The notes under the pieces are model-generated. The model was not told the DNA's origin and did no database searches. It saw only the letters and a program-made list of their open reading frames with translations. The position numbers were made by a program, and so were the translations under genes. Below, piece after piece: positions 19,504 to 64,000 of a stretch of 64,000 bases of DNA. Where the stretch lies: positions 129,203-193,202 of the forward strand of contig JBGSPL010000004.1 of the NCBI GenBank assembly GCA_041738615.1, written 5' to 3'. The stretch is from Patescibacteria group bacterium (GTDB taxonomy: Bacteria > Patescibacteriota > CPR2 > UBA1875 > CAIMLA01). Numbering within the stretch: position 1 is the first letter of the stretch; each line of letters opens with the position of its first letter.

Positions 19504-19779
19504 ATGGGAGTTCCGGTAGTAATGCCGGAAGGTGAATTGCAGCAGTGGATGATGACAACCGCTTGCATCGATCCTGTCACTGGTGGGATTCACCTTCGTA
19601 GGCTCGACCCGGTCTACGTCGAGGTTGACTTCGACAAGCAGGTCGGGTTCACCCAGTTCGGCGGGGAACTCAAGCTGTTCCCGTTAGACGATGGCGTGCC
19701 CAGGCCTCAGCTCGTTGTTACCGACCAGGTACTGGTCGATGGAGACGGGAATTGGGGTATCTATCCGAAGCATGAGTAA
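19504..19779 (+). CDS. Hypothetical small protein (91 aa, soluble, GC-rich codon usage), island C gene 1
   Basis: An AAGGAG SD lies 8 nt upstream of the ATG. The product is Asp/Val/Gly-rich. Confidence 0.5.
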   Translation: MGVPVVMPEGELQQWMMTTACIDPVTGGIHLRRLDPVYVEVDFDKQVGFTQFGGELKLFPLDDGVPRPQLVVTDQVLVDGDGNWGIYPKHE

Positions 19780-19791
19780 GGAGGTGGTCTC

Positions 19792-20064
19792 TTGGCTACC
19801 TTGATGGGTCGTTACCTCGGTAATGTAGAACTTACCGAGGGTGAGCGGCATAAGGTGGAAGAGGCAACAACGCAGAGTTGCCCTGGTCTTGCCGTCTCGG
19901 AGGCGGGCGCCACTGTGATACTGGAACACGAGGATCGTGTCGAGGTAGTTGCGACACCGGAGTGCTACATGCTCTTTGAGCCTCTCCCTGCGCAGGAGGT
20001 TTGCGTTCTTCCCGGAAACCATGTGCGAGTACTGACCAATGGTTCGTGGTTCTTGGACCACTAG
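19792..20064 (+). CDS. Hypothetical small protein (90 aa), island C gene 2
   Basis: TTG start with an AAGGAGG SD 8 nt upstream. Translationally coupled to gene 1 (12 nt gap). Confidence 0.45.
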   Translation: MATLMGRYLGNVELTEGERHKVEEATTQSCPGLAVSEAGATVILEHEDRVEVVATPECYMLFEPLPAQEVCVLPGNHVRVLTNGSWFLDH

Positions 20065-20098
20065 CCCAACCAAGCCCCCTGTGGCCGACCGAAGCGTC

Positions 20099-20117
20099 GC
20101 CCCGCGCGGGGCTTTTG
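20099..20117 (+). terminator. Intrinsic terminator closing island C
   Basis: GC stem-loop followed by a TTTT run. Confidence 0.55.
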
Positions 20118-20173
20118 TCGTTCTATTAGAGCCCTGCAGGGTGTAAAATATAGCCATAATAAAGGAGAATATT

Positions 20174-20704
20174 ATGTCAGAAACATCACATCCTATTATG
20201 CGCGACCTTATGACTCATGTATTACAAGTCCTATATATGCTCTTTCTTGGGATTGTGATAGCTGCCCTGTTTGGCCTTGGCGTGGATAATTTTTACCCAG
20301 CACCAAAGGCGCCAGAATATCCGACTATTTTGCAGAATCAGCAGTACAAAACAGTGCCGACCACCGCGCAGACAGAGGCAGAGCTCGCAGCACAGAAACA
20401 ATATGACAGTGCCCAAAAACAGTACACGGAGGACATGAAACCCTACACCAGGAATGTTTCGATAATCGTAATGGTATTAGCGGTGCTAGCCCTCGCTGTA
20501 TCTCTTACAGTCCTATCACGGTGGGAGATTCTCGCTAATGGTTTTCTGCTCGGCGGTGTCTTCTCGATGGCATATAGCATCATCCAGGGAATGATATCAG
20601 AGGACACGAAATTCCGATTTCTTGTCATCTGTCTCGCAGCCCTAGTGACGTTGGTCCTTGGGTACGTGAAATTTGTCCGTCCAGGTGAGAAACAAAGTAA
20701 TTAG
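20174..20704 (+). CDS. Hypothetical membrane protein (4 TM)
   Basis: AAAGGAG SD, 176 aa, hydrophobic segments. Confidence 0.5.
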   Translation: MSETSHPIMRDLMTHVLQVLYMLFLGIVIAALFGLGVDNFYPAPKAPEYPTILQNQQYKTVPTTAQTEAELAAQKQYDSAQKQYTEDMKPYTRNVSIIVMVLAVLALAVSLTVLSRWEILANGFLLGGVFSMAYSIIQGMISEDTKFRFLVICLAALVTLVLGYVKFVRPGEKQSN

Positions 20705-44531: not shown

Positions 44532-44546
44532 TCGCTAATATTTACT

Positions 44547-44574
44547 AAAACAAGCACATTATGTGCTTGTTTTA
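44547..44574 (+). terminator. Intrinsic terminator, copy 1 of a thrice-repeated hairpin motif (AAGCAC-N4-GTGCTT followed by GTTTT)
   Basis: ACAAGCAC-attat-GTGCTTGT followed by TTTAG. Confidence 0.65.
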
Positions 44575-44623
44575 GATACAGAAAAAGCCCATAATATATA
44601 CATAAACCTAAGAGGGAGGGACC

Positions 44624-47600
44624 TTGGCACAAAGGCCACGATTCCTGAAAGCTAGAAGCTATTGCAAGAAAGCAGTAAGTGCATGTTCTGCTATATTTGG
44701 ATTGGCTATAGTTCGGGCTCTTACCTTCTTCATCGACAAGGCTCGGGTGTGGCGCTTTGAACTGACGTACAAGCTTCACCTCAAGGTTCGCTCAGTACAT
44801 GACAACTTGGTAGTGAAGAACGTTATTTATCGTAAGGTTACGGAAAATAAGTATGCAGTGCCGGTGCGAAATGCTACAGCTTCTGCCTTTGTTGTATCTC
44901 TAATGCTGTTTACTACTATTCAATATATATTGCCACAGTTCAATCTATTAGCTCCAGGTCAAGTTTATGCCGGGTCAAATAATAAGACGTGGACAACCAA
45001 AGCAGACTTCGAAACCGCAGCAACAAATGCGGGAGTGACAATCGGGGGTGATAATGACGCGAATGATGCAAATAACAACGATAATACTAAGCTTCAGGCT
45101 ACTTCAAACTGGTCCCAACCGTCTAACCCAACGGCTGGCACGGACACCACGTATTCTACTGCCGTGGATGGCGAATTTGTTTATATAGGTGGATTACAAT
45201 ATGTGGGCCAAGCTCCAGATTTAATTAATGGTGATTATCAGTGGAGAATTGAAAAGAGAAATATATCAGACGGTACTTTGGTGTGGGCCCAGACAGAGAA
45301 TAACGGTGGTTACTATGACTATGTAAAGGATATATTCGTTTCAGGGAGTTCGCTCTACTTAGTGGGTATCGGTTCAGGGGCAAGTAATAATGATACAAAA
45401 TGGGTAATAGAAAAAAGGAATATCTCAGATGGTGGATTAGCTTGGACACGGACTTACAATCCTTCAACTGGAAACGATGTCCCAATGTCAGGGGCTACTG
45501 ATGGATCCTGGATATATGTGGGGGGTCTCGATAACTCTATGTCTAATAACCCCGCTTGGCGGCTAGAAAAAATCTCCTCAGTGGATGGTTCTTTATCAAC
45601 AGCTGTTACGGTTGATATCAGTACTGGCGTGACTTCGTACGAGTCCATCACTGGTGTTGCTGTGTCCGGTGGGTACGTTTATATAGGTGGATACGGTGGT
45701 TCTGCGAGTAATTCCTTTGGGAGAATACAGAAAAGAAATTCGAGTAACCTGGCTTTGACAATTGGTACATGGACTGTTGACTCGGACCCAACCACCGGTA
45801 ATGATGGCATACAGGATTTAATTATTGACGGTAGTTTTTTATACGTTGGCGGTTATTCAGGTGCCAATTATAGATACGAAAAACGTAACATGACTACCGG
45901 GGCCCTTGTTTACGGCCAGAATATCACACCAACAGGAACGAATCCTAATGTTAATATGATGACCTCGGACGGAACATATTTTTATACTTCCGCAAGTTCA
46001 ATAGGGACATTCCCTACCTATTACTACATTATTGAGAAGAGGCTTCTCTCGGACGCCTCTCTTGTCTGGACGATTACTGGTAAGCCATGTCGCGGAATAA
46101 CTTTTTCCAACTCAAGCCTTTTTACGGCTGTTACCAACACTGGTGGAGGAGGTGATTGGCTTACGGAGAGAATGTCAGATGCCAATGGCTCGGTAACAGC
46201 CTTTAATACCCCTGGTAACCTAGGTTCGAGTGTTACATCCGCGGTTGGTCTCCGTTATGATTCAGGAATTGGTAATACCGCTAAGGCGTCTACGATTTCG
46301 TTGACAGGCACAACGGCCTCGAACAACCAGAAGGTAAAGCTCAAGGTTCGTTCTGGTGATACTCAAGGAGAACTAGACACCTCTTTCTGCTATGGTCCAA
46401 CCTCCACAGGTTCTGGCTGTAGCGATTGGAGTACGGCGGGATCATTCTTTTATCAACAGCGAGTAGCGGGCGTAGAGACCTCTTCGACGACCGGTATATT
46501 AAATACAATCCCAGCCAAAAGATTTATAGAAGTTCTAGTTCGTCTAGAATCAGACGGATCGAATACACCTGTCTTAGACAGAGTTGATCTGGGGTATAAC
46601 TATCTCGACGCCCCAATTGCCCAGTTAGCGAAGAGACTTAGCGGCACAACCGACATACCTTATGACACTTACACTAATGAATCAGGATTTGTTGAAAAAT
46701 ATTTCGCCCAAGGCTTTAACAGCGGGGAAACACTTTATCCAGAAATTGAAGTAGTGTCTCAAGGTGCGTCATTTACTGGCACTGGCACAGTTGGCCCAGG
46801 AGTTTTGTTAACCCCAGGAAATTATGCTAATCCTGTGGAACTTGCTGTTACTAAGAACGGATTAGCTCCAGGCAATTATAAATTTAAGGTTCGGACCTCC
46901 GACTCCACGGGGCGCATAAGTGCATGGTCTACAAACGAAGTACTTTTCCGTATCGAACAAGAACTGCCTACCGGTTCAGTTACCATTGGCGGGTCAAATG
47001 TCACGGGCGGATATGCGAAGTCGAGAAATGTAGTTCTTAGCTCGACGGTTAACGACACAGGGGGCTCAGGTCTGGGACAGATGCAATTTGCAAATAAACC
47101 CGCAATTGATGGGGACCCCCTAGTTTGGTCAGGGTGGGAACCGTATAGTACTAGCAGGGTTTGGGCACTTTCAGCTGGAAATGGGGCAAAAACTGTCTAC
47201 GCCCAATATCGGGATAATGCAGGAAATGTAACTAATACCTGGGCACAGACTAGCCAGGCTGATTTTCAAGGCGGACAAACCTCAGGGAACGCCAGTGTTA
47301 CTAATACCCCCGGAACTATCAAGCTAGTAGGAGGAGTGCAGACCACTATAATAAGGCCAAACGGTCCTGGAAACTATAGCCAATGGTCGCAGAATCCGGC
47401 AACGGGGCAAAACTGGGACAAGGTTGATGAGGTTGTAAATAACCAGGGGGATTATGTACTTGGAGGCGGTAAGGACCTCTATAATTTGCAGGATCCCGCC
47501 CTAAGCAACGTAACAATTACAGGAGTTAACATCTACGCAGACGCTTTCGGCTCGGATGATTGCGGAGGTTGTTCGTCGTTGATTTCTTTCGGTATCTATG

Positions 47601-50600
47601 ACGGTTCGGGTGAGTGGTTCTCTACAGGAGTGGAGAACTCGGGGAGTCCGCTCGGCAATTTTGGCTCGTTAACGAATCCTCGTACCGGACTGGCTTGGAC
47701 TCTATCCCAAATCAATAGTTTACAGATTGGTTTGCTTAGCAGCGGGTCCTCAGCAATTCTTTATCAGATATATGCCGAAGTCTCATATATTCCTTCGTCT
47801 CTCTCTGGAAATTTCGCATCATTCGTAAAAGACAACGCTAGTGCTCAACATTTTGAAAATATCTCCTGGTCGGCGGATGTTCCAACACAGGCAGGTGCCG
47901 ATGCCTTACGTTTCCAGGTAGCAGCCAACAATGATAACACCACCTGGAACTATGTAGGACCTGATGGGACGAGTGGGACATACTTCACAACCAGCGGTAC
48001 CCAGATACCTACAAGTCTGAATGGTAATCAATATATCAGGTATAAGGCTTATCTCCAGTCGGCAGATTCCGCCTATACCCCCGTTATTTATGACGTATCT
48101 ATAGGAGTAACTACTGGTATTTCGGCTGCTGTCACGCTAGACGCTACCGCTCCAACAGGCACCGCTACTATCAATGCCGGTAATCCGACCTATGCAACAA
48201 ATCGCGCTGTAACGATGATTCTCGATGCCTCGGACGTGGGTACTGGTCTCAAGGACTTCCAGCTCTCGAACGACGGCGTCACCTGGGGCGCAGCTACCGA
48301 CGCGAATGGGGCAATCACAAATAGTGGTTGGCAGACTTGGGACGAGGCATACAAAACTACTGGTTACAGCGGAAGCTGGTCGTTGCTAGCGGGATTGGAT
48401 GGTCCTCGCAAGGTCTACGCGAGATTTAGGGATCTAGCGCTTAACATCGGAGGAGACTACTATCCAAACTGGATAGACGGCACAGGTACTATAAATAACA
48501 TCCAGGTTTACAATGCAAATGAAGCGACTAAAAAACAGTGGGGACCAGTTTCGGCTTGTCCAGGCCCGCAGTGTACGACAGTCACAGACGCTTACTGGGG
48601 TGATGGTAATGGTCTCTCAGCTGATAATAGTCTAGATTATTCTGCTTACCCGGCACGAGCTGCATGTCAGATTGTTGGCGGAAGACTGCCAACATTTGGT
48701 GAACTTGAGGGGATGTATGCCAATCAATCTAGTTACGGGCAAGCCTTTAATCAGGATGATTTTTTCTGGACCTCTATGGAATATGACTTAAATTCTTCGA
48801 ATGCGAGAGGATTTAAATTTTCCAACGAAGCGTCCTCGGCCACACCGAAAAACTACTCTTACTATGTTCGTTGTGTACGAGATTTAACACCTGCCGTTAT
48901 AGCTATTTCGGACAATGTCACTCTCGATATGACACTACCTACTACGGCTCTCATCGCCGATCCCGTAACAAACGATGGCTCAAATGGCTGGTACAAGACA
49001 AATCCGACTATCACTCTGACGGCAACAAAGAACGGCTCGGGCGTAGGTATAGAGAACGTGTTGTATCGTTGGGATAACAGTGACCTAGGATCTGGGACCA
49101 CTACTTATTCGACGCCGTTTGATATGGCCGGTTCCATCGGCCAGGGGACACACACCTTGTACTATAGGTCCAAGGACTTCGCTGGACACGTGGAAGGCAC
49201 GCAACAGCAACTCTTCAAGCTCGACACTACTTTACCTACAACGGGATACTCTATAGGAACCCCAAATGGTGCAAATGGTTGGTTCGTTGATACTGCACCA
49301 CAAATCACGCTTTCGCCTTCTGATGCCGGCGGCGGTAGTGCCTCTGGTATCGCAAGCACCAAGTACCAATGGGACAGCACAAGTGGCAATTGGACCACGG
49401 GTACAAGTGTCACGGCGATAACCGGCGACCATGTGCTCTACTACTATTCCACTGATACCGCCGGAAACGATGAGGTACAGATCGAACATCAACAGATTAA
49501 GTTTGATAATGGTAAGCCCCTAACCCCAACAGATTTTCGTGCACCGCTCAACGAATCGTCTACAAACATCATAGTTCTGCATTGGGATGCGGCGTTAGAT
49601 GGCGGTGGCTCAGGAGCCGTAGATTATCAGATACGTCGAAAGAAAGATTCAATCCTTTCCTGGAATGATGCGAGCGTTTGGACTTCTGGGCAGCTAGGTA
49701 ACGTACAGGTGTACTCCGACAACGCAGGTCTTGATGCTGGTTTCAAGTACAATTATCAGATTCGGGCCACGGACCTTGCAGGTAACTTAGCAGACTGGCC
49801 GGGTGACGGGGTAAAGACGGATGGTTATACTATAGACAACGTTCCACCTTCGACACCTAGTGCTGTGGTGGCAACAGTCTGTGATGGTACGGTGCAGAAA
49901 TGTAGCGATGTTAACAATCGTGGCTCTGAGATCAGACTCACCTGGACGATATCTAACGATACTGGACTCGGTATGGGCCCCGACGCTGAGGGCAAGATAG
50001 GCCACTACAAAATCTGGCGTTCTGTGACCGGGAGCGGTGTTGAAAACGAGTGGGTTTTGGTCGGTGTGGTTGACGGAAGCAGTGGTCAGCAAACAATTTG
50101 GTATGACAACAATGACAATAATGCCGCTACCTACAACATTGGAGTTTATCCTGTAACGGATCAAAGAAGTGGACAGCCGGCTGGTAAGACCTCTATTTCA
50201 ACGGGCCTAAACGACTACACGCAGTACTACTATAGAATTACAGCACTTGATCTTATTAACAATGAGAGTGATCTCTTTCCACCGTTCTTTCCAGACCCAG
50301 ATATCAACAAAAACGGCAATACCGCTATCACTCCAGATATTACTCCGCCGACAAACCCAAGCGCAGTTACAGCGACCGCCCTGGGTCTTGATGGTAGTGA
50401 TCTAAATAATCCAAACATTGGCCATCAACGAATTTCTGTAAACTGGGCAGCATCGGTAGATTGCAAGGCCTTGGTTACTAACTGTACCCAAGCGACGCCA
50501 AACATAGATCGGGGTAGTGGCAATGTGTCCTATAAAGTATATCGTTCCACAACGAATTATCTCGACGAAGCAGATTGGCTCACTAGTGGTACCCTAGTAA

Positions 50601-53380: not shown

Positions 53381-53406
53381 ATCAATAACCTTACTAAAGA
53401 TTCCCT

Positions 53407-53432
53407 AAAACAAGCACTTTTGTGCTTGTTTT
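53407..53432 (+). terminator. Intrinsic terminator, copy 2 of the repeated hairpin motif
   Basis: ACAAGCAC-tttt-GTGCTTGT followed by TTTTAG. Confidence 0.65.
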
Positions 53433-53482
53433 AGGGACGGAATGAGCTTAAAATTAATACATAACCATAAGAGGGAGGGAGC

Positions 53483-56400
53483 TTGGCACAAAGGCCACGA
53501 TTCCTGAAAGCTAGAAACTACTTACGAAAGGCAGTAGGTGTCTGTTCTTCTTTTTTTGGTGTGGCTGCAATTAAAGCTCTCACGTTCATTATCGATAAAT
53601 CTAGAATCTGGAGATATGAACTGACCTATAGGCTCCATTTGAGAGTTCGCAAGTTTCACGACGTTTTGGTTGTGAAGAGCCCAGTATACAAAAAAACCAC
53701 TGAAAGTAAGTATGCCGTACCGGTAAAAAATGCCACTATTTCAGCATTTTTCGTGTCCTTGATGCTATTTACAACTATTCAATTTATTTTACCTTACTTA
53801 AATCCTTTCAAGTCAGGGTTGGTACAGGCTGGGGCAAATAGCGTTACTTGGTCTACTAACGGTGATTTTACATACAATAAGTCGGCGTTATGTGGGGCCA
53901 CTACACAGTCCCAGATAGCGATTTCGGGGACTGCTTACACTGATGCATCCTGTACGGCGGCTGCTGCAGATGCGAGTTTGGAGCTTAATTCTTCATCCAC
54001 ACCGCAGGGAGCTCTCGCTGTTAGTGGAGGTGCTGATTTTGCACTTGCCTTGATGGCGGATGGGACCGTTAGGTCTTGGGGGAAAAATAACGTTGGGCAG
54101 CTCGGGAACGGAACAAATACAGAATCAAATGTACCGGTAACCGTATCCGGTATTACTGGCACCACCGCAGGTACCAGGGCTATAGCAGTTTCGGCTGGCT
54201 CGGATTGGGTTGGTGGAGGTCATGCCCTCGCCTTGATGGCTGACGGAACGATCAAATCTTGGGGCAGGAATGGGTATGGGGAACTAGGAAATGGGGCAAC
54301 GGGTGGCTCATCTAATATTCCTGTAACCGTTATCGGTATTACGGGTGCCAACGCGGTCACCCGAGCAATTGCGATTTCAGCAGGTATAAATTATTCAACC
54401 GCAGTAATGGCGGATGGAACGATTAAGTCATGGGGTTTTAACAGTACTGCTGGTACTTTGGGGAACAATAGTACAACAGATTCAAATGCTCCGGTGAGTG
54501 TATCTAATATAAATGGAACTACAGCGGCAACAAGGGCGACTGCAATATCAGCTGGAAACGGACATACTGCCGCCTTGATGGCGGATGGGACGATTAAAAC
54601 TTGGGGCGCGGGCACGATTGGTCAGTTGGGGAATAATGGAACGTCGAATTCCCTAGTGCCGGTGAATGTATCTAACATTAATGGTTCAACTGCGGCGCTC
54701 AGGGCAATGGCAGTCGCAACTGGTAATACTCAGACACTGGCCCTGATGGCGGACGGAACAGTGAAGTCTTGGGGTTACAACATGGCTGGCGAGCTCGGCA
54801 ATGGGAGTGCATCTGGAACTCAGGCCAATGTGCCAGTAAATGTATCAGTAATTACGGGTGCTTCCGCAGCCCTGCGGGCCACTGCAATCTCAGCAGGTGC
54901 TAGGGTCTCCATGGCTCTAATGGCGGATGGCACGGTTAAGACCTGGGGTTATAATGGTACCTTGGGCAATAACACGAATGATGCCTCTACCATACCAGTT
55001 ACAGTCACAGGCATTGATGGTTTGACGGCTGTTAATCGAGCCACGTACGTGTCTGAAGGGATGAACAACGGCGCTTCATATGTATTAATGGCTGATGGCA
55101 AAATCAAATCATGGGGAACGGGTACAAATGGCAGACTTGGAAATGGTTCATCCTCCACGCAGCTTGTTCCAGTAACTGTCTCTGGTATAGCTGGGGCAGT
55201 GGCTTCGAGTAGGGCAATTTCAGTATCGACAGGCACGTTTAATGGCGCTGCGGTGATGGCAGATGGATCTGCCAGAGTATGGGGTGGCAATACATGGGGT
55301 CAACTTGGCAATAATAGTCAAGGAGGGGCATCTAACATCCCTGTGGTGGTCTCAAATCTGGATGGTAGCTCAGCTGATAAGCGAGCAGTATCCATTTCTC
55401 TAGGTCATTATAACGCTTATGCACTAATGGCAGATGGCACAGTAAAGGCGTGGGGACAACCAGGGTTTCTTGGCAATGGAAGTGTTTATAGCGGTAGTGT
55501 TGTTCAGACAGTTCCTACTAATGTCTCGGGTATTGATGGTACGACACCTGCCAAAAGAGCTGTTTCTGTTTCGTCTTCTTCAAGCACTGTTATTGCCCTG
55601 ATGGCAGATGGGACAGTTAAGACCTGGGGCTCAAATAATTATGGTCAGCTAGGCAACGGAAATACTGGGACGGATGCTCTTGCTCCGGTAGATGTTCAGG
55701 GGATAAATGGAAGCAGCGCCGCAACTAGAGCGGTAGGTATCTCTTCGGGAAGCAGTAACATGTACGCATTGATGTCAGATGGAACAATTAAATCATGGGG
55801 CTACAACCTAAATGGAGAGCTTGGAAACGGAAACACAGGAACGGACTCTAATCTACCAGTAAGTGTTTCAATTATAGATGGGCTGAGTGCTGCTAATAGA
55901 GCCGTCTCAATGGGTAGAGGTACTGGTGAAGTAAGAAATGCCCTAATGGCGGATGGCACAGTAAGTAGTTGGGGTAAAAGTGCTTATTCTGGAGGTTTTG
56001 GTGATGGTACTTATGGGGTAAGTAATACCCCAGTGAAGGCTACCGGAATAGACGGAGCGACTCCCGCTAACAGGGCTACTGCTGTTATAAGTGGAGGGTA
56101 TTTTGGTGCTGGTATCATGGCTGATGGTTCAGTCAAATTCTGGGGATATAATCAGGAAGTGCCATTTTCAGCATCTACTCCGGTGTTGGTTCCTGGTTTT
56201 AGCGGTACTTCATCATTTAACCAGTCGACGGTTATAAGTAGTATCGGTAATACTTTTATCGCGCTGGAAGCAAATGGCTCGATCAAATCATGGGGTGATA
56301 ATACTAATGGCCGACTAGGGAATGGTAATACTGGTACAGACTCTAGCGTACCCGTATCTGTTTTAAATATTGCGGGAGGTATGGTTGTAGCTCTGTATAC

Positions 56401-59400
56401 CTCGCCCGGGACCATCTCTGGACTAAAAGTAGATGCTGGAGTTGGCCAGAAGTATAAATGGAATTCCGTAAACTGGAACACGGCTGCGCTACCCGCCAAT
56501 ACTTCGGTGACCTTTAAATATCGAACCTCTGAGGATGGTTCAACTTGGTCTGATACCACCTGGGCCGGCGCGGGTACAACTCAATCATCAGGAAGTACGG
56601 GCACGGCTGATTTAAGCGTTTTGAACGCCACTAGATATCTCGAAATTCAGCTTACTCTTACTACTTCAGATGGAGTCTCATCCCCAACACTCAATGATTT
56701 TACTGTTACCTACGACTCCCTCGAAGCCCCAGCAAACGGCAACATCACAATGTACAAAGCGGATGGTACCACTCAGCTGAAAAATTCTAGTGGTACTGCT
56801 GTAGCCGCTGGTGTGGGAGCTGGCTGGACCAACGAACAATCACTGGTGATTAAGGCCACAGGGCTGACTTGTGGATCCACTGGAGGAACTAACCGATGTG
56901 GTGGAGTGTCTAACGGTCGCAAACCAGAGGCAGAGATAAAGCCAGTCGGTACACCATTTGCCACTAATCCTGTATCTGGTACAGATACTATAGTAGGTAC
57001 TAGTGACAACTCAGGAGTAGACCAAGAGCTAGAATCTGGCTATGTCACCATTCCAGCCTCGAAACTAACCACCATTGGTTCACCAGGATACCACTTCCGC
57101 GTCAGAACAACAGATGAGGCTGGTCGTGTTTCTGGCTGGACAAACTACGCGAGTGACGGTCTGGCCTTTACCATAGAGCAAACTACCCCGACTGGAACTA
57201 TCTCTATAGGTGGAGCAAATGTCACAGGAAACTATGCCAAGTCTACTAGCGTTACTTTAGATACTAGCTCGGCTGCAGATACCGGCGGCTCTGGCCTGGC
57301 CGAGATGCAGTTTTCCAATAATGGTATCACCTGGTCTGGCTGGGAGGCGTACAGCCCCACCAAGGCTTGGACTCTTTCTTCTGGAGATGGTCCCAAAACG
57401 GTTTATGCCCAATGCCGCGATTGGGCTGGGAATATTTCTGGCGACACTTGGAGTACAAAAGCAGAATTTAGCTCGGGATCACTCGGCCCTAATCTAACTG
57501 TTTCTGGTGCCTCGCCGGCAGATTATTCAACCGTAAGCTTAAAATATGAGCTAGACAATACAGTGAGTATGATTTCGGGTGCATTCAACAACACAACTGC
57601 TCTGAGGAGTGATGGCACAGCGCTTGCAGTCGGTAATAACGCTTATGGGCAGTTAACGTCAATCGCTACATGGAACAACCTTAAGTCAGTTTCAGCCGGT
57701 GAAAATACCCACATTCTAGGGCTTAAAAATGACGGGACTGTATATGGCGCCGGTAATAACTCCTTAGGACAAGTCAACGTTGGCTCATGGTCAAATATTC
57801 GTTCAGTAGGCACGGGTTACGCAAGCTCTTTTGGGATAACCAACAACGGCACGGTGATTGCTATCGGCTATGATGCTTATGGGCAGCTAAATGTCTCAGG
57901 CTGGTCCGATATAAAGCAGGTCTCAGGCTATAATCATACCTTAGGGCTTAAAAATGACGGTACGGTACTTTGCATCGGTGATAATGGTAACGGCCAATGT
58001 AATAATGTAGGGTCCTGGTCAGATACCAAGAAGGTTCTTGCAGGTGCAAGTCATTCAGTGGGACTTAAAAATGATGGCACTCTTGTCGGCGTTGGAGATA
58101 ATAACAATGGTCAACTTAATTTTGGAACTTGGACAGGTGTTAAGGACATCGCGGTGACTGGGAGGGGAACGTTGGGTCTTAAAGAAGACGGGACAGTTCT
58201 AGCAGTTGGCGACAACACCTATGGTCCGCTCGATGTCGGCACCTGGTCAAACATAACTTCTATTGAATGTGGTTACTATCATTGTGTGGGATTAAGAGGA
58301 GATGGTACCTTGGTGGCCACTGGCAGGGATTATGGCCAGTTGGCCGTGGGCTCCTTCACTGATGTTAAACAGCCACCGTTGATCTTTAATTCCCCAGGAG
58401 TTTTATCGGGGTTGGTTTATGATAGTGGCCCCGGAAAAACCCAAAAATGGATGGCGTCTCGGTGGCAGACATCATCACTACCGGCCAATAGCCGGGTTAA
58501 ATTAAGGGCCAGAACTTCCGATAATGGTTCAAGTTGGAGCGGTTATAGCTCGTACATTACTCAATCTAGCGCTGGTACAACTTCAGGCGGTGGGGCCTTT
58601 TCTGGACTGGCAGATTCTAGGTACTTATCAATTGAGTTAACCTTGGAATCGGATGACGGTTTGGGCTCCCCAATACTATCGGACCTAGTGTTAGAGTCTG
58701 CCTTATTTAGTAGTGTCACCCTAGACACCACCCCGCCAGCCAATGTCACTGGCCTCGCTGGGTATGTTTCCGATGGCGGTGCTGCTCTTAGTCAGGCAAG
58801 CTGGTATGACAACAAAACCCCTTACTTTGATTGGGACGACAGCGCAGATGGTGATCTAAATCATTATGAATATTGTTTAGGGGCTAGCAACTGTACACCA
58901 AATTTAACTAGAAATACTATTAGCAATGTTGCTTTGGATCTAAACAACGCCACAAACTACCCAGATGGTACCTACTATATGAGAGTAGTGGCCCATGACA
59001 ATGCGGGGCAACCATCTACCACTCCAGATTCTTGGACGTATAATTTTGACCGTACAACACCGGTGGCCGTAACGGGGTACTCGGCTACTCAGATACATGA
59101 TGCTTATATCGGCATAGATTGGACTCCAGTCTCTGTGCAGAACGGCTCCCCAGTCACTTACACTATTGAGAGAATCAGGAATACAAAATTCCAAGAGGGC
59201 TTTACCGTAAATGACTTCGCGGGACACATCTGGTCGCAGCAAACTGCCCATGGTTACGCGGAATTTACAGGGGTAACGGGCAACTCATATCAAGACAATA
59301 TAGCGCTAAAGGATAGGGGTATCAAATATGCGTATCGCATAAAGGCGGTAGATGAAACTGCTAAGGAAAGCCCTTACCAAAACGATGCATTCTTTGGTCT

Positions 59401-62400
59401 TACCAGAGATGGTATAACCCCCACCTCCCCATCAAACGTTGTGGTGGCACCTTGTAGCTATCAGTCACAGGCGGCCTGTTCGGACTTTGGTAGTCCTACG
59501 CCAGACGACTCCCTAAAAGGTCATGAGGTAAAGGTATCCTGGACCAGGGCTACCGATGATGGCACCGGTGTCCAGAAGTACTATGTAATCCGTGTTGACA
59601 ATATATTTGATGGCTCCTATGTAGCGGAAGATATAGCAGCGACCCTGGTAGTGGATCCAGAAAATCCTGTCCAGGCGATGGTTGTGTATGTCGCTACAGG
59701 TATCAGTGATTATACAATCTATCATTTTAGGGTAGTTGCAGAGGACGGATCTACACCGCCAAACAAGTCACCCTACTTGCCATCTAGTGACGAGAACTAC
59801 AATTTTGCCAGAACTCCAGATGTCACTCCACCATCGGCGCCTGTTGTATCTGCTACCCCGGGTGGCATGGATGATCCAATGGCAAACGAGCCAAAGCAGA
59901 AGATCATTATCTCCTGGTCCCAGTCTGTTGATGCCGGCTCAGGAGTAAATACCTATGTTCTATATAGGGCTGACAGGCCGGGAGAACTAACTGACCAGAG
60001 CGGTTCACTGACCGATAATGAATTTATAGATATTACCAGTTCACCAAACGTCACCTGCAATTTAACGCTCCGAGAATGTACCGAGGTTGGGTTAGAAGAT
60101 GTGTCTCACTATTACTACAGGGTGAGGGCTAAAGACAACGTTGCAGACCCATATACAAATATTTCACCTTTCTCAAACAATGCCTACACAAAGACACTCT
60201 CTAGCGCGGTCCCTTCACCACCAAGAGGCCGGAAGATACCCGACTCTAGTCCACTTGCTTATGAACCATTTCCTTACGTCTATTCGATAAAGGGAGACCC
60301 CACTACTGTTGGTAGTAGGGTAGGCAAGGACATTCAGATACAATTTACCGGTAGTAGACTCAAGGACGACCAGCCATATCTAGTCCTCTATGAAGTGTAC
60401 CGCTCTACGGATAATCTCGCCTGGTCCAAAGTAGGCGGAGATATCAACCCGATTCGAAATGAAAACGACACAGACAATACTTATACAGTCACAGATACTG
60501 GCGTCGCAGATGCCACCAAGTACTACTATAGAGTGAAGGCTATCGGCAACAACCCCAATGTTACAGGCGGTGGTGAATCATACTCCGGAGTTGGTAGTAA
60601 TGTGAATCAAGGCTGGGATATCACGCCCGATGTTACTGCTCCTGCGCTACCTACGGGGCTGAAGGTTAAAGATATCCATGACGACGGGACTAACTACAAA
60701 CGAAATATCATCACTTGGGAGCGTATCGCCGAACCGAAGAGAAACGGTGACAATGACTTCCGAGAATACCGTATATATAGATCCAATGATGGGCTAGTCT
60801 GGGGACAGATTTGTAAAGCTGCTGTCGATTCTGTAAATACAGTTTATTTGCCAGGCGGGTGTGACGATACACGCCCTAATCCGCTGTATGACATCAACAA
60901 GGAGATCGGTCTCGCTACAAACTATTATATGGACCTGATACCAATAGGTGATGCGGATCAAGACTATTATTACTACGTGGCAGCTGTAGATGATGCAAAA
61001 GACGCCTATAGATATGTCAACAATAATGTTATCAATGGTTACTCCAATGAGTCAGCACCAAATCGTACACCCGATAATAAAATAGTTGCGGTGAATATAA
61101 ACCCAGCTATCGCTCAGCCAACTATTACTAGAACAGGAGACAATGCCCCTAAGGTAGTCAATGTAGGTGTCTCTACTGCCACTGTCGAGTGGTATGCAGA
61201 CCAGCTGACGGACTCCGTAGTAGAGTTTCGGGCACAAGGTACTAGTAAGTGGGTTACTATCGGTGATCGGGTACCAAAATATTACAACGAGAAACACACC
61301 GTATCTTTATTTGGATTACTGCCGACCACTACATATGAATACAAACTTATCTCGAGAAATAGTCTAGGGAACGAGGATGTAGTCGGGGATGCCGACAATG
61401 AAAAGCAATATTTACCTATCCTCACCACTTCTGGATTTAGTATCTCTAACATAGATTATACCTCCACCACCACTTCGGCTACTGTCACCTGGAACACAAA
61501 TATCTGGGCAAATGGTAACTATGTAGAATATCAAATGCAAGGAGTCACAAACGGCAGTGGCAGCGGCAATGGACCAGCAGGCCAAAATATGTCGCCAGTT
61601 CTTGACAGCAATCAGGTGCTTAGACAAAATCTAACCCCTGCAGAGATCCAGGAATATCTCCTCGGGCACAAGGTATACATCGGTGGACTCAAATCCAGCC
61701 AGACCTATAGCTTTAAGCTAAAGAGTATCTCTGTTGATGGTTATGTGACCTATTCTGACCTGGGCACCTTCACCACAAGATCCTTTGATACTGCCCAATT
61801 CTCACTAGCCCCAACTAGCTCCAATGTAGCTGATCGTAATATCACCTCTACTACTGCACAAATAGTCTGGCAGACAGCTGTACCTACGACTTCTTGGATA
61901 GAGTACGGTACGACTTCCGGCAGCTATGGAACCTCGGCAGGTGATAATACCCTCACCATGGTTCACGTCGTAACTCTAGAGGGTCTAACTCCTGGCACCA
62001 AATACTATTACAGAGCTCGCGTAAAGGATCTAAATGACGTAGAGTACACTTCACCTGAGTACTCCTTCACTGCCATCTTGAAACCCAAAATATCTAATAT
62101 GACGGTGAAGAATATTACCCCATACTCAGTGACTATTGCTTGGGAGACTAATGTTGACACAGAAACCATAGTGAACTGGGGAACTACGACCGCCTATGGT
62201 GAGAAACGTGGTAAAAACGGAGTCTCCAAAGTGCACGAGCTAGTAATAGATAATCTGCTCGACAACCAAGAGTATCACTATCAAATCCTTGCCAAGGATG
62301 AGGCTGGGAACGAAGTTGCAGACACTGACAAACTAGTCCGTACCCCACTCGATACCGAAGGGCCCAAGATTACTAATGCCAAGACCGACATTCTCCCTAT

Positions 62401-62776
62401 GGGTGAGAATGATACAACCGCATCAGTAATCATCTCCTGGAATACTAACAAGCCTGCCTCTACTCTGGTAGAGTACGACGAAGGTATCATCGGCGGTAAC
62501 TATGCTAACAGATCTGTAGAGGACACCTCACTAAATACCTCACATACCGTTATCGTAAAGAACCTAAAGCCAGCCTCCTCATTCCACTACCGTATGGTCT
62601 CTGCAGATAAACGTAACAACATTACGCAGTCGCAGGACTACACCTTCGTAACTCCTACCAAGGAAAAATCGATCCTCCAGCTAATCCTCAAATCGCTGGA
62701 GGACACCTTTGCCTGGACGAAGAATCTAAACCAATTCTTCGGAAACGTCGGCAAGAGAATCACTGGCCAGAAGTAA
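53483..62776 (+). CDS. Giant surface protein paralog 2 (3097 aa)
   Basis: Its N-terminus and 5'UTR match paralog 1. More than 20 RCC1-type repeats (ALMADGTVKSWG.N..GQLGNG) span aa 180-960. A second array of about 10 shorter RCC1-like repeats spans aa 1370-1620. Ig-like modules end ...KTVYAQCRDWAGN. There are many FN3 domains. The C-terminal 330 aa are almost identical to paralog 1. Confidence 0.75.
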   Translation: MAQRPRFLKARNYLRKAVGVCSSFFGVAAIKALTFIIDKSRIWRYELTYRLHLRVRKFHDVLVVKSPVYKKTTESKYAVPVKNATISAFFVSLMLFTTIQFILPYLNPFKSGLVQAGANSVTWSTNGDFTYNKSALCGATTQSQIAISGTAYTDASCTAAAADASLELNSSSTPQGALAVSGGADFALALMADGTVRSWGKNNVGQLGNGTNTESNVPVTVSGITGTTAGTRAIAVSAGSDWVGGGHALALMADGTIKSWGRNGYGELGNGATGGSSNIPVTVIGITGANAVTRAIAISAGINYSTAVMADGTIKSWGFNSTAGTLGNNSTTDSNAPVSVSNINGTTAATRATAISAGNGHTAALMADGTIKTWGAGTIGQLGNNGTSNSLVPVNVSNINGSTAALRAMAVATGNTQTLALMADGTVKSWGYNMAGELGNGSASGTQANVPVNVSVITGASAALRATAISAGARVSMALMADGTVKTWGYNGTLGNNTNDASTIPVTVTGIDGLTAVNRATYVSEGMNNGASYVLMADGKIKSWGTGTNGRLGNGSSSTQLVPVTVSGIAGAVASSRAISVSTGTFNGAAVMADGSARVWGGNTWGQLGNNSQGGASNIPVVVSNLDGSSADKRAVSISLGHYNAYALMADGTVKAWGQPGFLGNGSVYSGSVVQTVPTNVSGIDGTTPAKRAVSVSSSSSTVIALMADGTVKTWGSNNYGQLGNGNTGTDALAPVDVQGINGSSAATRAVGISSGSSNMYALMSDGTIKSWGYNLNGELGNGNTGTDSNLPVSVSIIDGLSAANRAVSMGRGTGEVRNALMADGTVSSWGKSAYSGGFGDGTYGVSNTPVKATGIDGATPANRATAVISGGYFGAGIMADGSVKFWGYNQEVPFSASTPVLVPGFSGTSSFNQSTVISSIGNTFIALEANGSIKSWGDNTNGRLGNGNTGTDSSVPVSVLNIAGGMVVALYTSPGTISGLKVDAGVGQKYKWNSVNWNTAALPANTSVTFKYRTSEDGSTWSDTTWAGAGTTQSSGSTGTADLSVLNATRYLEIQLTLTTSDGVSSPTLNDFTVTYDSLEAPANGNITMYKADGTTQLKNSSGTAVAAGVGAGWTNEQSLVIKATGLTCGSTGGTNRCGGVSNGRKPEAEIKPVGTPFATNPVSGTDTIVGTSDNSGVDQELESGYVTIPASKLTTIGSPGYHFRVRTTDEAGRVSGWTNYASDGLAFTIEQTTPTGTISIGGANVTGNYAKSTSVTLDTSSAADTGGSGLAEMQFSNNGITWSGWEAYSPTKAWTLSSGDGPKTVYAQCRDWAGNISGDTWSTKAEFSSGSLGPNLTVSGASPADYSTVSLKYELDNTVSMISGAFNNTTALRSDGTALAVGNNAYGQLTSIATWNNLKSVSAGENTHILGLKNDGTVYGAGNNSLGQVNVGSWSNIRSVGTGYASSFGITNNGTVIAIGYDAYGQLNVSGWSDIKQVSGYNHTLGLKNDGTVLCIGDNGNGQCNNVGSWSDTKKVLAGASHSVGLKNDGTLVGVGDNNNGQLNFGTWTGVKDIAVTGRGTLGLKEDGTVLAVGDNTYGPLDVGTWSNITSIECGYYHCVGLRGDGTLVATGRDYGQLAVGSFTDVKQPPLIFNSPGVLSGLVYDSGPGKTQKWMASRWQTSSLPANSRVKLRARTSDNGSSWSGYSSYITQSSAGTTSGGGAFSGLADSRYLSIELTLESDDGLGSPILSDLVLESALFSSVTLDTTPPANVTGLAGYVSDGGAALSQASWYDNKTPYFDWDDSADGDLNHYEYCLGASNCTPNLTRNTISNVALDLNNATNYPDGTYYMRVVAHDNAGQPSTTPDSWTYNFDRTTPVAVTGYSATQIHDAYIGIDWTPVSVQNGSPVTYTIERIRNTKFQEGFTVNDFAGHIWSQQTAHGYAEFTGVTGNSYQDNIALKDRGIKYAYRIKAVDETAKESPYQNDAFFGLTRDGITPTSPSNVVVAPCSYQSQAACSDFGSPTPDDSLKGHEVKVSWTRATDDGTGVQKYYVIRVDNIFDGSYVAEDIAATLVVDPENPVQAMVVYVATGISDYTIYHFRVVAEDGSTPPNKSPYLPSSDENYNFARTPDVTPPSAPVVSATPGGMDDPMANEPKQKIIISWSQSVDAGSGVNTYVLYRADRPGELTDQSGSLTDNEFIDITSSPNVTCNLTLRECTEVGLEDVSHYYYRVRAKDNVADPYTNISPFSNNAYTKTLSSAVPSPPRGRKIPDSSPLAYEPFPYVYSIKGDPTTVGSRVGKDIQIQFTGSRLKDDQPYLVLYEVYRSTDNLAWSKVGGDINPIRNENDTDNTYTVTDTGVADATKYYYRVKAIGNNPNVTGGGESYSGVGSNVNQGWDITPDVTAPALPTGLKVKDIHDDGTNYKRNIITWERIAEPKRNGDNDFREYRIYRSNDGLVWGQICKAAVDSVNTVYLPGGCDDTRPNPLYDINKEIGLATNYYMDLIPIGDADQDYYYYVAAVDDAKDAYRYVNNNVINGYSNESAPNRTPDNKIVAVNINPAIAQPTITRTGDNAPKVVNVGVSTATVEWYADQLTDSVVEFRAQGTSKWVTIGDRVPKYYNEKHTVSLFGLLPTTTYEYKLISRNSLGNEDVVGDADNEKQYLPILTTSGFSISNIDYTSTTTSATVTWNTNIWANGNYVEYQMQGVTNGSGSGNGPAGQNMSPVLDSNQVLRQNLTPAEIQEYLLGHKVYIGGLKSSQTYSFKLKSISVDGYVTYSDLGTFTTRSFDTAQFSLAPTSSNVADRNITSTTAQIVWQTAVPTTSWIEYGTTSGSYGTSAGDNTLTMVHVVTLEGLTPGTKYYYRARVKDLNDVEYTSPEYSFTAILKPKISNMTVKNITPYSVTIAWETNVDTETIVNWGTTTAYGEKRGKNGVSKVHELVIDNLLDNQEYHYQILAKDEAGNEVADTDKLVRTPLDTEGPKITNAKTDILPMGENDTTASVIISWNTNKPASTLVEYDEGIIGGNYANRSVEDTSLNTSHTVIVKNLKPASSFHYRMVSADKRNNITQSQDYTFVTPTKEKSILQLILKSLEDTFAWTKNLNQFFGNVGKRITGQK

Positions 62777-62802
62777 AGCCCACCGATTACTAAATATTCG
62801 CT

Positions 62803-62828
62803 AAAAAAAGCACTTATGTGCTTGTTTT
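62803..62828 (+). terminator. Intrinsic terminator, copy 3 of the repeated hairpin motif
   Basis: AAGCAC-ttat-GTGCTT followed by GTTTTAG. Confidence 0.6.
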
Positions 62829-62872
62829 AGCTGTACAGAAGTACTACAATTTATATATAACTTGCGAGGGTA

Positions 62873-64000
62873 ATGAAACCTAGAAAAGCTCAGCTAAATT
62901 CAGTGTGGAAACGAGCTACAAGGCTACTATCAAAGAGTAGTAATTTTAGGTTACTCAGTTTTTCGTCATTGCGAGGGGCGAAGCAATCTCCTCCCCCCCG
63001 CAACGTCATTCCGGACCCCGCCTCGACCGTATACGATTCGGGCAGGTTGTTCCGGAATCTCTCTGTGTCGCTCTTACGTTTATTGTCATTTGCCTGGTCA
63101 TTATTCAAGGTAGCTCTCTCCTTTTTGGCAAAGAATATCATCCTGGGCATTATAAGAAGCATCGATTATCTAATTAAGCTGCTTCAGATTCTTCGATATG
63201 AACTCACCTACAAGTTCCATCTCAAGGTTCGCTCGGTACATGACACCTTGGTCATACGGGTCCCGGTCTATAAAAAAGCTACCGAACACAAGCTAGCTGT
63301 GCCAGTGAGGAACGCTACCGTGTCCGCATTCTTAGTCTCATTTCTGCTTTTTACATTTGTGCAGTATGTATTGCCGAACCTCAACCTTTTTACTCCGAAT
63401 AAAGCCTACGCAGGGTCCAATAGTAAAACATGGACTACGAATGCAGACTTCAGAAATAATAAAGCCTCTTATTGTGTAGAAGGTAATCCAGGCACCAATA
63501 TTCCGTCGAATGTAGTAGTGTCTGGAACGACCTACAGCTCTGTGAATAATTGTCAAAATCAGGATACAAATAATGCCGCAGATTTGAGCCTAAACACAGG
63601 TCCCTTTCCTGATCCGAATTCAATTACTTCGGCAGGGTCTATCTCGACCGGTAATTATGGGGGCATGACAGCAGATCCTACTTCAAATAAATTGTATGTT
63701 GCAAATTACATAACCAATAAACTAGACATAGTTAACACACTCACTAACACAGTAACAAATTCTATTTCTACGGGCAATCGGACCCGCGAAGTAGCTATCA
63801 ATCAAGTTTCAAGAAAGGCCTATGTAACTGTTGCTGTGGATCCACCGTCATCTAGTAAGATAGTGGTAATAGATTTAAATACAGAGACAGTAATCAAATC
63901 CTTAGTAATTAGTAATATTGGTGGTACATTAGCCGTTAACCTGAGCACAAATAAAATATATGCGACGTCAGGGTCATCGCTTTATGTTATTGATGGTGTT
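62873..64000 (+). CDS. Giant surface protein paralog 3, with a divergent and longer N-terminal leader; truncated at the window end
   Basis: ATG at 62873 opens a frame that runs to the window end. RYELTYKFHLKVRSVHDTLV...AVPVRNATVSAFLVSFLLFTFVQYVLP aligns with the N-terminal anchor region of paralogs 1 and 2. It is followed by NHL/YVTN-like beta-propeller-type repeats (KLYVANYITNKLDIV...KIYATSGSSLYVIDG). Confidence 0.65.
   Translation, partial: MKPRKAQLNSVWKRATRLLSKSSNFRLLSFSSLRGAKQSPPPRNVIPDPASTVYDSGRLFRNLSVSLLRLLSFAWSLFKVALSFLAKNIILGIIRSIDYLIKLLQILRYELTYKFHLKVRSVHDTLVIRVPVYKKATEHKLAVPVRNATVSAFLVSFLLFTFVQYVLPNLNLFTPNKAYAGSNSKTWTTNADFRNNKASYCVEGNPGTNIPSNVVVSGTTYSSVNNCQNQDTNNAADLSLNTGPFPDPNSITSAGSISTGNYGGMTADPTSNKLYVANYITNKLDIVNTLTNTVTNSISTGNRTREVAINQVSRKAYVTVAVDPPSSSKIVVIDLNTETVIKSLVISNIGGTLAVNLSTNKIYATSGSSLYVIDGV

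Follow-up and report, generated by a model that had tools for sequence, protein, structure and literature searches.

We analysed a 64-kb window, the whole 64,000-nucleotide stretch of contig JBGSPL010000004.1 from a Patescibacteria group bacterium, and focused on the three consecutive giant genes at its 3' end, W1, W2 and W3. The results revealed a tandem array of paralogs from one protein family, whose N- and C-terminal parts are conserved and whose heads differ from gene to gene and from relative to relative. As a whole, mechanism included, the array of at least three paralogs is best explained, with slightly better than even confidence, as encoding a new family of giant (~300 kDa), Sec-exported, fibrillar-adhesin-like surface proteins. 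Taken by itself, the reading as surface adhesins is fairly probable from the sequence, and the predicted placement of the C-terminus next to the cell falls just short of an even chance.

In the proposed mechanism, the N-terminal domain would direct Sec export and its signal would be cleaved, the C-terminal module would hold the fibre on the bacterium's own envelope, and a stalk of about ten FN3 domains would project the head tens of nanometres outward, where it would bind a ligand, probably a glycan or a protein, of host or partner cells. The array would diversify by duplication and head replacement, and its ends would be kept constant by purifying selection together with occasional conversion of a unit made up of 3' end, hairpin, promoter/Shine-Dalgarno (SD) sequence and 5' end.

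Tandem giant genes with conserved ends and replaced heads

Open reading frame (ORF) analysis placed the three giants directly 3' of a cell-wall gene, as follows.

42720-44531, + strand: YkuD-type L,D-transpeptidase with a PG_binding_4 domain (Pfam), directly 5' of the array
44624-53380, + strand: W1, giant paralog 1, 8757 nt, 2918 aa, TTG start
53483-62776, + strand: W2, giant paralog 2, 9294 nt, 3097 aa, TTG start
62873->64000, + strand: W3, giant paralog 3, ATG start, 1128 nt or the first 376 codons, cut by the window edge

Consecutive, in tandem and separated by spacers of ~100 bp, the three genes made up 30% of the window. The coordinates and sizes agreed with a first-pass annotation of the DNA that had reported three tandem plus-strand giants; the start given there for the array, 44547, lies inside the upstream hairpin and not within W1. 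W1 and W2 were identical to the protein cluster representatives P0018 and P0019, and self-BLAST of the window returned as repeats only the shared ends of the giants and the internal RCC1 repeats. The order of parts in W1 and W2 is N-terminal domain (N-domain), variable head, mid module, second variable zone, FN3 stalk and FN3-FN3-helix module, located as listed below.

44624-44971, + strand: W1 N-domain, aa 1-116, covered by no Pfam or NCBIfam model
45104-46222, + strand: W1 head, aa 161-533, a 7-bladed beta-propeller of 'WRIEKR' (delta-60-like) repeats (repeats, AlphaFold 2 (AF2), Foldseek)
46181-47323, + strand: W1 conserved mid module, aa ~520-900, beta-rich, without a family name, present in ~20 of 26 full-length members
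48677-48880, + strand: W1 weak Lcl_C (DUF1566) lectin-like domain, aa 1352-1419, in the second variable zone (aa ~900-1600)
49550-53248, + strand: W1 FN3-rich stalk, aa 1643-2875, with 9 of the 10 FN3-like domains, present in 21-26 of 26 members
52700-53377, + strand: W1 C-terminal FN3-FN3-helix module, aa 2693-2918, with an amphipathic helix of ~30 residues at 53276-53365
54005-56332, + strand: W2 head, aa ~175-950, 14 RCC1 repeats of ~57 aa (Pfam), enough for two 7-bladed propellers
57596-58324, + strand: W2 second RCC1-like array, aa 1372-1614, 7 repeats of ~38 aa (repeat count and Pfam)
62096-62773, + strand: W2 C-terminal FN3-FN3-helix module, aa 2872-3097, 224 of 226 aa identical to W1
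from ~63605, + strand: W3 YVTN-type propeller head, following the N-domain and only partly inside the window

The W1 head consisted of seven ~52-aa repeats with the motif W-x-[IL]-E-K-R. Its AF2 model, built with 26 aligned homologues (predicted local distance difference test (pLDDT) 88.4; predicted TM-score (pTM) 0.90), showed 28 strands forming seven four-stranded blades, and the best Foldseek matches of the model were all propellers (CylK, TMq 0.79; BamB; YncE). A PDB sequence search with W1 gave no match. The W2 head was assigned with the RCC1 propeller models PF00415, PF13540 and PF25390, scoring 407 bits for WD40_RLD (cut-off 150), 326 for RCC1_2 (22) and 234 for RCC1 (21.7). The seven-blade WxxEKR propeller of W1, on which repeats, AF2 and Foldseek agree, and the two RCC1 arrays of W2, with 14 and 7 repeats and Pfam scores well above cut-off, were thus as first annotated. 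The W3 head matched the YVTN propeller of PDB 1l0q in four stretches (phmmer, E 6.3e-14); the YVTN model TIGR02276 reached 19.3 bits, under its cut-off of 27.85, and weak NCBIfam matches to YncE and PQQ_ABC_repeats were likewise under their cut-offs. The DUF1566 domain claimed for W1 was recovered as a weak Lcl_C match (PF07603, 28.0 bits, E 2.8e-6) that misses the Pfam gathering cut-off of 34.9, and the region is probably a divergent member of that family. A ...VRCV[RK] motif was present in W1, with related endings in the fragments P0049 and P0062.

The W1 propeller was portable. Elsewhere it occurred in short secreted proteins, fused to ribosome-inactivating-protein (RIP) domains (PF00161; P0085, P0087, P0091 and P0093), and P0086 from candidate division WOR-3 combined it with a type IX secretion system (T9SS) sorting domain. 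In the RIP fusions, by analogy with ricin, the propeller plausibly plays a targeting role like that of the B chain. These fusions may be lectin-like toxins, and one W1-propeller homologue is named 'delta-60 repeat protein' in its JGI record. Fusion to RIP toxin domains makes the heads plausible binders; propellers are not among the catalogued adhesive domains, and the Lcl_C match is weak.

To define the family, we built a profile from the three N-domains and ran it exhaustively over 1.84 billion protein cluster representatives. It identified 68 proteins, W1 and W2 included, and 50 of these reached E <= 1e-10. Most of the complete members were 2100-3500 aa long, and the N-domain always lay at or near the N-terminus. 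A C-terminal tail, TP[ST]KEKSILQLI[LI]KSLEETF[AS]W, accompanied the N-domain in 27 full-length members and was kept in 27 of 27 complete ones counted; like the N-domain, it has no Pfam or NCBIfam model. A word-index search with the N-domain found no match, and a C-terminal search returned 17 fragments, all on short contigs. We then compared W1 and W2 with the 26 other full-length members, all against all, and counted the members sharing each zone.

N-domain: common to about 18-20 of 26
W1 aa 200-500 (head): common to 0 of 26
W2 RCC1 zone (head): common to 2-6 of 26
Mid module: common to ~20 of 26
Second variable zone: common to 5-13 of 26
Last ~1300 aa: common to 21-26 of 26

Head types were patchily distributed: RCC1 heads occurred in P0026, P0028, P0050 and the second giant of locus L005, a YVTN head in P0059 and a W1-like propeller in P0081. 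Head clustering by a fixed 450-aa window was confounded by the common mid module and was not used for these counts. Between W1 and W2, the mid module (W1 aa 486-997, W2 aa 943-1468) was 30% identical and a short Ig-like stretch was also common, so that of the completely different cores described by the first-pass annotation the heads indeed differ, and the mid module and Ig-like segments are homologous.

Syntenic relatives gave the strongest support for an exchangeable module. Scanning the GTDB species representatives with a degenerate pattern taken from the N-domain alignment yielded three loci, L002 and L003 in metagenome-assembled genomes (MAGs) of Candidatus Saccharibacteria and L004 in bacterium ELA653. 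In the window, RmuC (37282), pheS (39088) and pheT (40379) precede YkuD in this order on the same strand. In L003 the same series, RmuC (85% identical to the window protein), PheS (76%), PheT (60%) and YkuD (65%), led into a giant of 2738 aa and the start of a second. In L002, YkuD was 92.6% identical over 216 aa and was followed by two giants (3016 and 2740 aa). Comparison of W1 with L2a and of W3 with L2b, both of L002, gave matches in N-domain, mid module and stalk and none in the heads; the W3 N-terminus had its best match (64%) in L2b. PDB sequence searches with the L002 heads returned nothing meaningful. The binding module proposed to be exchangeable is therefore unrelated between syntenic genes of genomes whose YkuD proteins are 92.6% identical, and copy number differs as well (three or more giants in the window against two in L002 and two in L003, and one in the more distant L009). 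With Ca. Saccharibacteria MAGs as nearest relatives and the synteny shared with them, the window most likely derives from a Saccharibacterium, and the proposed small-genome, probably episymbiotic organism is also borne out.

A further array, L005/L006, lay on a 96-kb metagenome contig in the order MurI-MurD, giant, GIY-YIG, second giant with an RCC1-type head. Its first giant is split by a frameshift before the last three FN3 domains (~9780-10000), and the same split was present in four assemblies; the small GIY-YIG endonuclease gene (10893-11180) lies between the giants on the opposite strand. P0081 was considered as the product of the L005 gene and rejected: length alone agrees, and the L005 gene carries the frameshift. 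In L002, the second giant is followed by no hairpin; the region 18115-20378 holds an acidic ORF of 143 aa, after which comes a membrane ATPase whose matches to DUF87/TrwB (VirD4-like) are weak. A peptidoglycan gene stood 5' of the array in three independent contexts, namely YkuD in the window, L002 and L003, D-Ala-D-Ala ligase in L004 (8717-9724) and MurI with MurD in L005 (5-2081), and the lone giant of L009 had none. This adjacency could hint at a wall-linked attachment or could be due to chance.

The giants might instead build a structural, S-layer-like coat that protects or shapes the cell, in which head diversity would serve evasion of phages or predators. Such a lattice would accord with the match of the W3 head to a Methanosarcina surface-layer protein (1l0q), with the peptidoglycan genes (YkuD, Ddl, MurD/MurI) that several genomes have next to the giants and with an invariant C-terminal module that could be a lattice or wall contact. 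We nevertheless consider it improbable: Pfam and NCBIfam gave no SLH or S-layer domain match, a ~3000-aa chain of about 25 domains arranged as beads on a string is an atypical S-layer protomer, copy number differs even between close relatives (at least three in the window, two in L002 and L003) and is single in L009, and the family is rare, with 68 representatives.

Putative export signal, FN3 stalk and C-terminal module

The N-domains of W1 and W2 were 66% identical over aa 1-129, and that of W3 was 49-55% identical to both. The W1 N-domain carried the motif R-x-E-L-T-Y-K-L-H-L-K-V-R-S-V-H-D ... Y-K-K, a hydrophobic helix at aa ~86-106 and then P-x5-A-x-A|G. Its first 85 residues were basic (18 K+R vs 4 D+E), the region before the transmembrane (TM) helix held 18-19 K+R, and the sequence past the helix was not basic; therefore, the bulk of the protein should be extracytoplasmic. 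Across 38 aligned members the core read R-L-x-[YL]-E-L-x-Y-x-x-H-L-x-x-R-x-x-H-D ... Y-K-K-x-x-D-x-x-Y-S-x-x-V-H-K-A, then the hydrophobic helix, then P-x-F-N-x-x-x-P-x-x-A-x-A-G-x-N-S-x-T-W-T-T-x-x-D-F. At the candidate cleavage site, P occupied -6 in 33 of 38, A/V/S/I occupied -3 and A/G/S occupied -1 in 38 of 38, and W occupied +7 in 37 of 38. Given the small residues at -3 and -1 in all 38 members and the proline at -6 in most, we read the N-domain as more probably a long signal peptide, cleavable and specific to the family, than a permanent anchor. Extended signal peptides of large Gram-positive surface proteins follow a logic similar to that proposed here. The first-pass annotation had described a basic N-terminus with one TM helix acting as a constant anchor. 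The basic character stands; W1 and W2 have two hydrophobic segments, of which the first (aa 17-37) is not conserved in distant members and only the second is kept family-wide, and the pattern in the 38 members fits a cleavable signal peptide better than an anchor.

Beyond the second variable zone, W1 aa 1601-2918 and W2 aa 1829-3097 were 46% identical, with identity increasing toward the C-terminus. With an iterated hidden Markov model (HMM), W1 had 10 FN3-like domains and W2 had 12, most of them within the C-terminal stalk, and the Pfam matches there were fn3 and Pur_ac_phosph_N, in line with the FN3 modules first annotated. The domain and structure checks suggested with that annotation thus recovered RCC1 and FN3 by Pfam and the W1 propeller by AF2.

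The stalk matches also bear on whether the giants are released binding proteins or enzymes that capture polymers, their FN3 and lectin-like modules acting as carbohydrate-binding spacers around an unrecognised catalytic domain. The FN3 matches are to FN3-like N-domains of phosphatases (Pur_ac_phosph_N, PhoD_N), some JGI fragments are named 'phosphodiesterase/alkaline phosphatase D-like', and large segments have no family assignment. We regard such a role as highly improbable: Pfam, NCBIfam and PDB sequence searches found no catalytic domain, the phosphatase matches are restricted to the non-catalytic, FN3-like part, and the invariant C-terminal helix module would be left unexplained.

The C-terminal module was the most constant part of the giants, and the reported near-identity of the C-termini was confirmed, with 224 of the last 226 aa the same in W1 and W2. 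Its AF2 model, built with 17 aligned homologous fragments, consisted of two FN3 domains with pLDDT >90 and a terminal helix (residues 198-227 of 231 modelled) that was not packed against them, and its Foldseek matches were tandem FN3 pairs. No LPXTG-like motif was found in the last 50 aa, and there was no C-terminal hydrophobic segment and no sortase motif; Pfam and NCBIfam gave no match to choline-binding, GW, CHU_C/Por tail or autotransporter barrel models. Nearly half of fibrillar-adhesin-like proteins are without a known anchor (PMC8286594). The distant member P0081 (2550 aa) shared the N-domain and a W1-like propeller (29% over 675 aa), had no amphipathic tail and ended in a TM helix followed by RLHRLRGK. 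As a single case, this TM end weakly favours a cell-proximal C-terminus. Because of its extreme conservation, we think that the FN3-FN3-helix module contacts a conserved component of the bacterium's own envelope or assembly machinery. If the N-domain is cleaved, the C-terminal module becomes the better candidate for cell attachment, which would reverse the polarity originally proposed.

In that original polarity, an uncleaved type II signal anchor would hold the propellers near the membrane, and the FN3-FN3-helix module would be a distal tip that binds a conserved target, oligomerises or makes fibre-fibre contacts. The N-domain is kept over ~100 residues, its cytoplasmic motif included, which exceeds the needs of a plain signal peptide, and G-x-N-S-x-T-W-T-T-x-x-D-F past the putative cleavage site is conserved too. 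Pfam, NCBIfam and hydrophobicity revealed no recognised C-terminal anchor, and the terminal helix, read by eye, has a roughly heptad-like hydrophobic pattern. This arrangement is somewhat unlikely, however: the small residues at -3 and -1 and the proline at -6 in a divergent family are hard to explain without a signal peptidase, P0081 ends in a real TM anchor, and variable heads near the cell beneath an invariant outermost tip would be the opposite of the usual monoderm adhesins (PMC8286594).

Several further observations weigh against giant adhesins held at their C-terminus. The AxA site lies ~12 residues past the hydrophobic core, which is far for a signal peptide, and the N-terminal helix may be retained as a signal anchor, which would leave the variable head adjacent to the membrane. 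The terminal helix has a moderate pLDDT of 52-63 and is possibly an oligomerisation or partner-binding element and not an anchor, and no LPXTG, SLH, LysM or C-terminal TM was detected in the giants by Pfam, NCBIfam or hydrophobicity. The propeller is a general-purpose scaffold, found in enzymes too, the best structural match of the W1 head being CylK. Pfam covers only part of each giant, and an unannotated segment may contain a catalytic domain.

Selection, possible exchange and spacer units at the gene ends

To assess how the shared ends are maintained, we compared W1 with W2 by the Nei-Gojobori method, estimating synonymous (dS) and non-synonymous (dN) divergence. The last 222 codons differed by 55 synonymous and 2 non-synonymous changes, and the zones behaved as follows.

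Last 226 codons: dS 0.49, dN 0.011, dN/dS 0.02
aa 2693-2738: pS 0.75 (near saturation), dN 0.024, dN/dS 0.006
Last 180 codons: dS 0.32, dN 0.007, dN/dS 0.02
Codons 2-40: dS 0.65, dN 0.21, dN/dS 0.33
Interior segments: dS saturated, dN 0.22-0.71

These values indicate that the C-terminal module is under strong purifying selection. Both gene ends, which are contiguous with the spacer in the array, appear younger at the DNA level because they are less diverged than the saturated interior, and the pattern fits an exchange of the ends by occasional gene conversion or unequal exchange. The reported near-identity of the 5' region and the first 25 codons of W1 and W2 held in full only for the SD, start codon and initial 11 codons, which were identical. 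Of the first 25 residues, 18 agreed between the proteins, and DNA identity across the 5' region was 72%.

Shared ends could also arise if a single gene had been collapsed or mis-joined into apparent tandem copies during assembly. Giant genes with many repeats are often broken or wrongly joined in assemblies, the database relatives are mostly short-contig fragments, and a 211-aa 'mini' protein, P0017, resembles a chimera or a deletion. The prospect of such an artefact is negligible here, given 5' ends of only 72% DNA identity, heads without similarity, the 55 synonymous differences in the last 222 codons, and tandem arrays in four other independent assemblies (L002, L003, L005/L006 and L007). 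Assembly collapse, the concern raised with the first-pass annotation, is thus excluded by the synonymous differences and the independent arrays, and the two copies are genuine. P0017 itself comes from a 1946-bp Logan contig, and its N-domain runs straight into the last FN3 and the beginning of the tail. Either recombination between the constant ends deleted the intervening part, or P0017 is a chimera of assembly. Diversification by a diversity-generating retroelement was considered and rejected: window self-BLAST found no template/variable repeat pair, and no reverse transcriptase was present among the part of the ORFs scanned.

The spacers contained a recurrent unit, and W3 an insertion, at the following positions.

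44545-44575, + strand: hairpin 1, terminator-like, CTAAAACAAGCAC-N5-GTGCTTGTTTTAG, -18.4 kcal/mol, z -5.9
53402-53437, + strand: hairpin 2, -26.8 kcal/mol, z -8.4 (terminator scan)
62800-62831, + strand: hairpin 3, one stem mismatch, -16.2 kcal/mol, z -3.8
62965-63057, + strand: in-frame 93-nt insertion in the W3 5' coding region (codons ~31-62), missing in the L002 and L003 counterparts

The palindrome CTAAAACAAGCAC-N4/5-GTGCTTGTTTTAG stood 5' of each giant, in three copies that each led into an AT-rich box and then a GAGGG SD. The stretch 3' of hairpin 1, up to 44620, held the AT-rich box and then the SD GAGGGAGGG; after hairpin 2, the SD and TTG start of W2 lay at 53470-53485. Folding and an alignment of five spacers, those of L002 and L003 included, confirmed the repeated terminator and 5' unit first noticed in the sequence. 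In the window and related loci the stem sequence was exclusively 5' of giant genes, as also in L002 and L003. The exact hairpin additionally occurred in three metagenome contigs (L010, at 2152-2178, L011 and L012) that by tblastn encode no relative of the giants or YkuD, so the hairpin sequence alone is not diagnostic. In L010 these contents include a transposase as well as a collagen-like protein with PTAPTA repeats. A promoter scan gave 35 matches against 31.6 in shuffled controls, that is, no excess, and we make no promoter claim.

The W3 insertion was GC-rich with internal inverted repeats, occurred once in the window, and has a translation that includes SLRGAKQSPPPRNVIPDPAS. Its C7 tract at 62993 was the longest G/C homopolymer of the 64 kb. 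The insertion may be a small mobile-element remnant, a slipped-strand switch, or both.

The constant ends might together amount to an undescribed, lineage-specific export-and-attachment system for giant fibres, a proposal that we regard as unlikely as it stands. It would combine a ~116-aa signal domain bearing a cytoplasmic recognition motif (R-x-x-E-L-x-Y-x-x-H-L-x-x-R-x-x-H-D ... Y-K-K), an envelope-fixing module and cassette heads that set the host. The module could then be fixed by an in-plane membrane anchor, or to peptidoglycan with involvement of the adjacent YkuD; the 3' end, hairpin, SD and 5' end would possibly form a recombination substrate, and the C7 tract a possible on/off switch.

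The remainder of the window was ordinary housekeeping (tmRNA, ArgRS, BipA, CTP synthase, DinB and small hydrolases). Between 20973 and 24666, seven small, tightly packed or overlapping genes encode a cupin, two Ser_hydrolase paralogs, two Peptidase_S51 paralogs, a cytidylyltransferase-like protein and a NUDIX protein, a cluster resembling a duplicated small-hydrolase operon. On the minus strand, a 757-aa ORF at 9331-11604 had no Pfam match at E <= 0.001, and a tmRNA gene at 1239-1634 matched Rfam RF00023 with 96.6 bits; ARAGORN reported no tRNA or tmRNA across the 64 kb, this tmRNA included.

Relation to known surface proteins and significance

CPR (candidate phyla radiation) relatives of the window's organism are monoderm-like. 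The fibrillar adhesins of monoderm bacteria (S. aureus Cna/SasG-type), a class defined by Monzon et al. 2021 (PMC8286594), resemble the giants in being one very long polypeptide with an Ig/FN3-like stalk and a constant C-terminus, and in combining fast evolution with domain shuffling; their N-terminal export signal and variable binding head near the N-terminus have putative counterparts in the giants. The stalk of the giants corresponds to that class, with 10 and 12 FN3-like domains in chains of 2918 and 3097 aa and tandem FN3 domains in the AF2 model. Unlike these adhesins, the giants carry no LPXTG or other known anchor and end in a novel FN3-FN3-amphipathic-helix module; their N-terminal signal region spans ~116 aa with a motif of its own, and their heads are RCC1, YVTN and WRIEKR propellers with putative binding.

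Large surface proteins are already known from the same phylum. Absconditicoccaceae encode surface proteins longer than 1500 aa in which FN3, adhesin-repeat and ConA domains occur (PMC13059738), and Patescibacterium danicum encodes FhaB-domain proteins of 4939-6025 aa for which rapid domain reshuffling was suggested (PMC11809585). In Southlakia epibionticum, the FN3 and VCBS envelope proteins SEML1_0890/0891 were essential by Tn-seq and were read as adhesins (PMC10633639; see also PMC11665869), and several surface adhesin-like proteins, an FN3 protein among them, are needed for epibiotic growth of Saccharibacteria (PMC10633639). The window shares with these the pattern of reduced-genome, probably epibiotic bacteria that devote much coding capacity to adhesion-type surface proteins, for which host recognition has been proposed. 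As described, the Absconditicoccaceae, P. danicum and Southlakia proteins belong to other lineages or have another architecture (FhaB, VCBS), and none was reported with the N-domain, the tail or the pheST-ykuD tandem.

Individual traits of the giants have parallels elsewhere. E. coli PBP5 and PBP6 have C-terminal amphipathic-helix membrane anchors, and such a helix, lying in the plane of the membrane, can keep exported proteins attached to the outer leaflet. Gram-positive proteins with a YSIRK or KxYKxGKxW signal and LPXTG likewise have constant targeting ends, and their unusually long signal peptides contain a conserved motif. Chlamydial Pmp autotransporters (PMC8039305) resemble the giants in that constant export and anchor ends flank variable ectodomains, and they are multi-copy and often clustered. 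Both the Pmp and the YSIRK/LPXTG systems differ in having unrelated secretion and anchoring chemistry, and Pfam and NCBIfam detected no sequence similarity to the giants. PamR, a predicted Saccharibacteria pilus terminator, has two FN3 domains and a C-terminal TM helix (bioRxiv 10.64898/2026.03.03.709456), and thus, like the giants, tandem FN3 followed by a terminal helix, a predicted cell-proximal tether in the same phylum. The helix of the giants is amphipathic and not a hydrophobic TM helix, so that the likeness is one of architecture and anchoring would be by analogy. The Methanosarcina mazei surface-layer protein (1l0q; YVTN and PKD) is like the predicted W3 in placing a propeller before Ig-like domains on the cell surface; it differs in being archaeal, much smaller and part of an S-layer, with termini not common to the giants. 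Two other classes did not fit. Polymorphic toxins (Rhs/CdiA) are at odds with a C-terminus that is the most conserved part (99% between paralogs) and with the lack of any toxin or immunity domain match in Pfam and NCBIfam, and a type I secretion system (T1SS) RTX adhesin of the LapA type with the lack of a HemolysinCabind match in Pfam.

Literature searches found no description of this N-domain, tail, pheST-ykuD-linked tandem arrays or selection pattern. The suggestion that the locus is undescribed therefore holds for this giant family, which is what is new; giant adhesin-domain surface proteins of Patescibacteria and their domain reshuffling have been published (PMC13059738, PMC11809585, PMC10633639). 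Should the heads prove irrelevant to host binding, the giants would merely be one more large multidomain surface-protein family. The exceptional constraint on the C-terminus points to an unknown attachment or assembly partner, and the constant ends, as an N-domain profile and a C-terminal tail motif, can be used as search handles. Heads are wholly replaced between near relatives, and because the family is small and lineage-restricted, a comparison of head type with the host range of strains would be feasible. Host recognition and attachment by Saccharibacteria and other CPR epibionts are largely unexplained beyond type IV pili, and the locus offers a sequence-defined candidate family for them.

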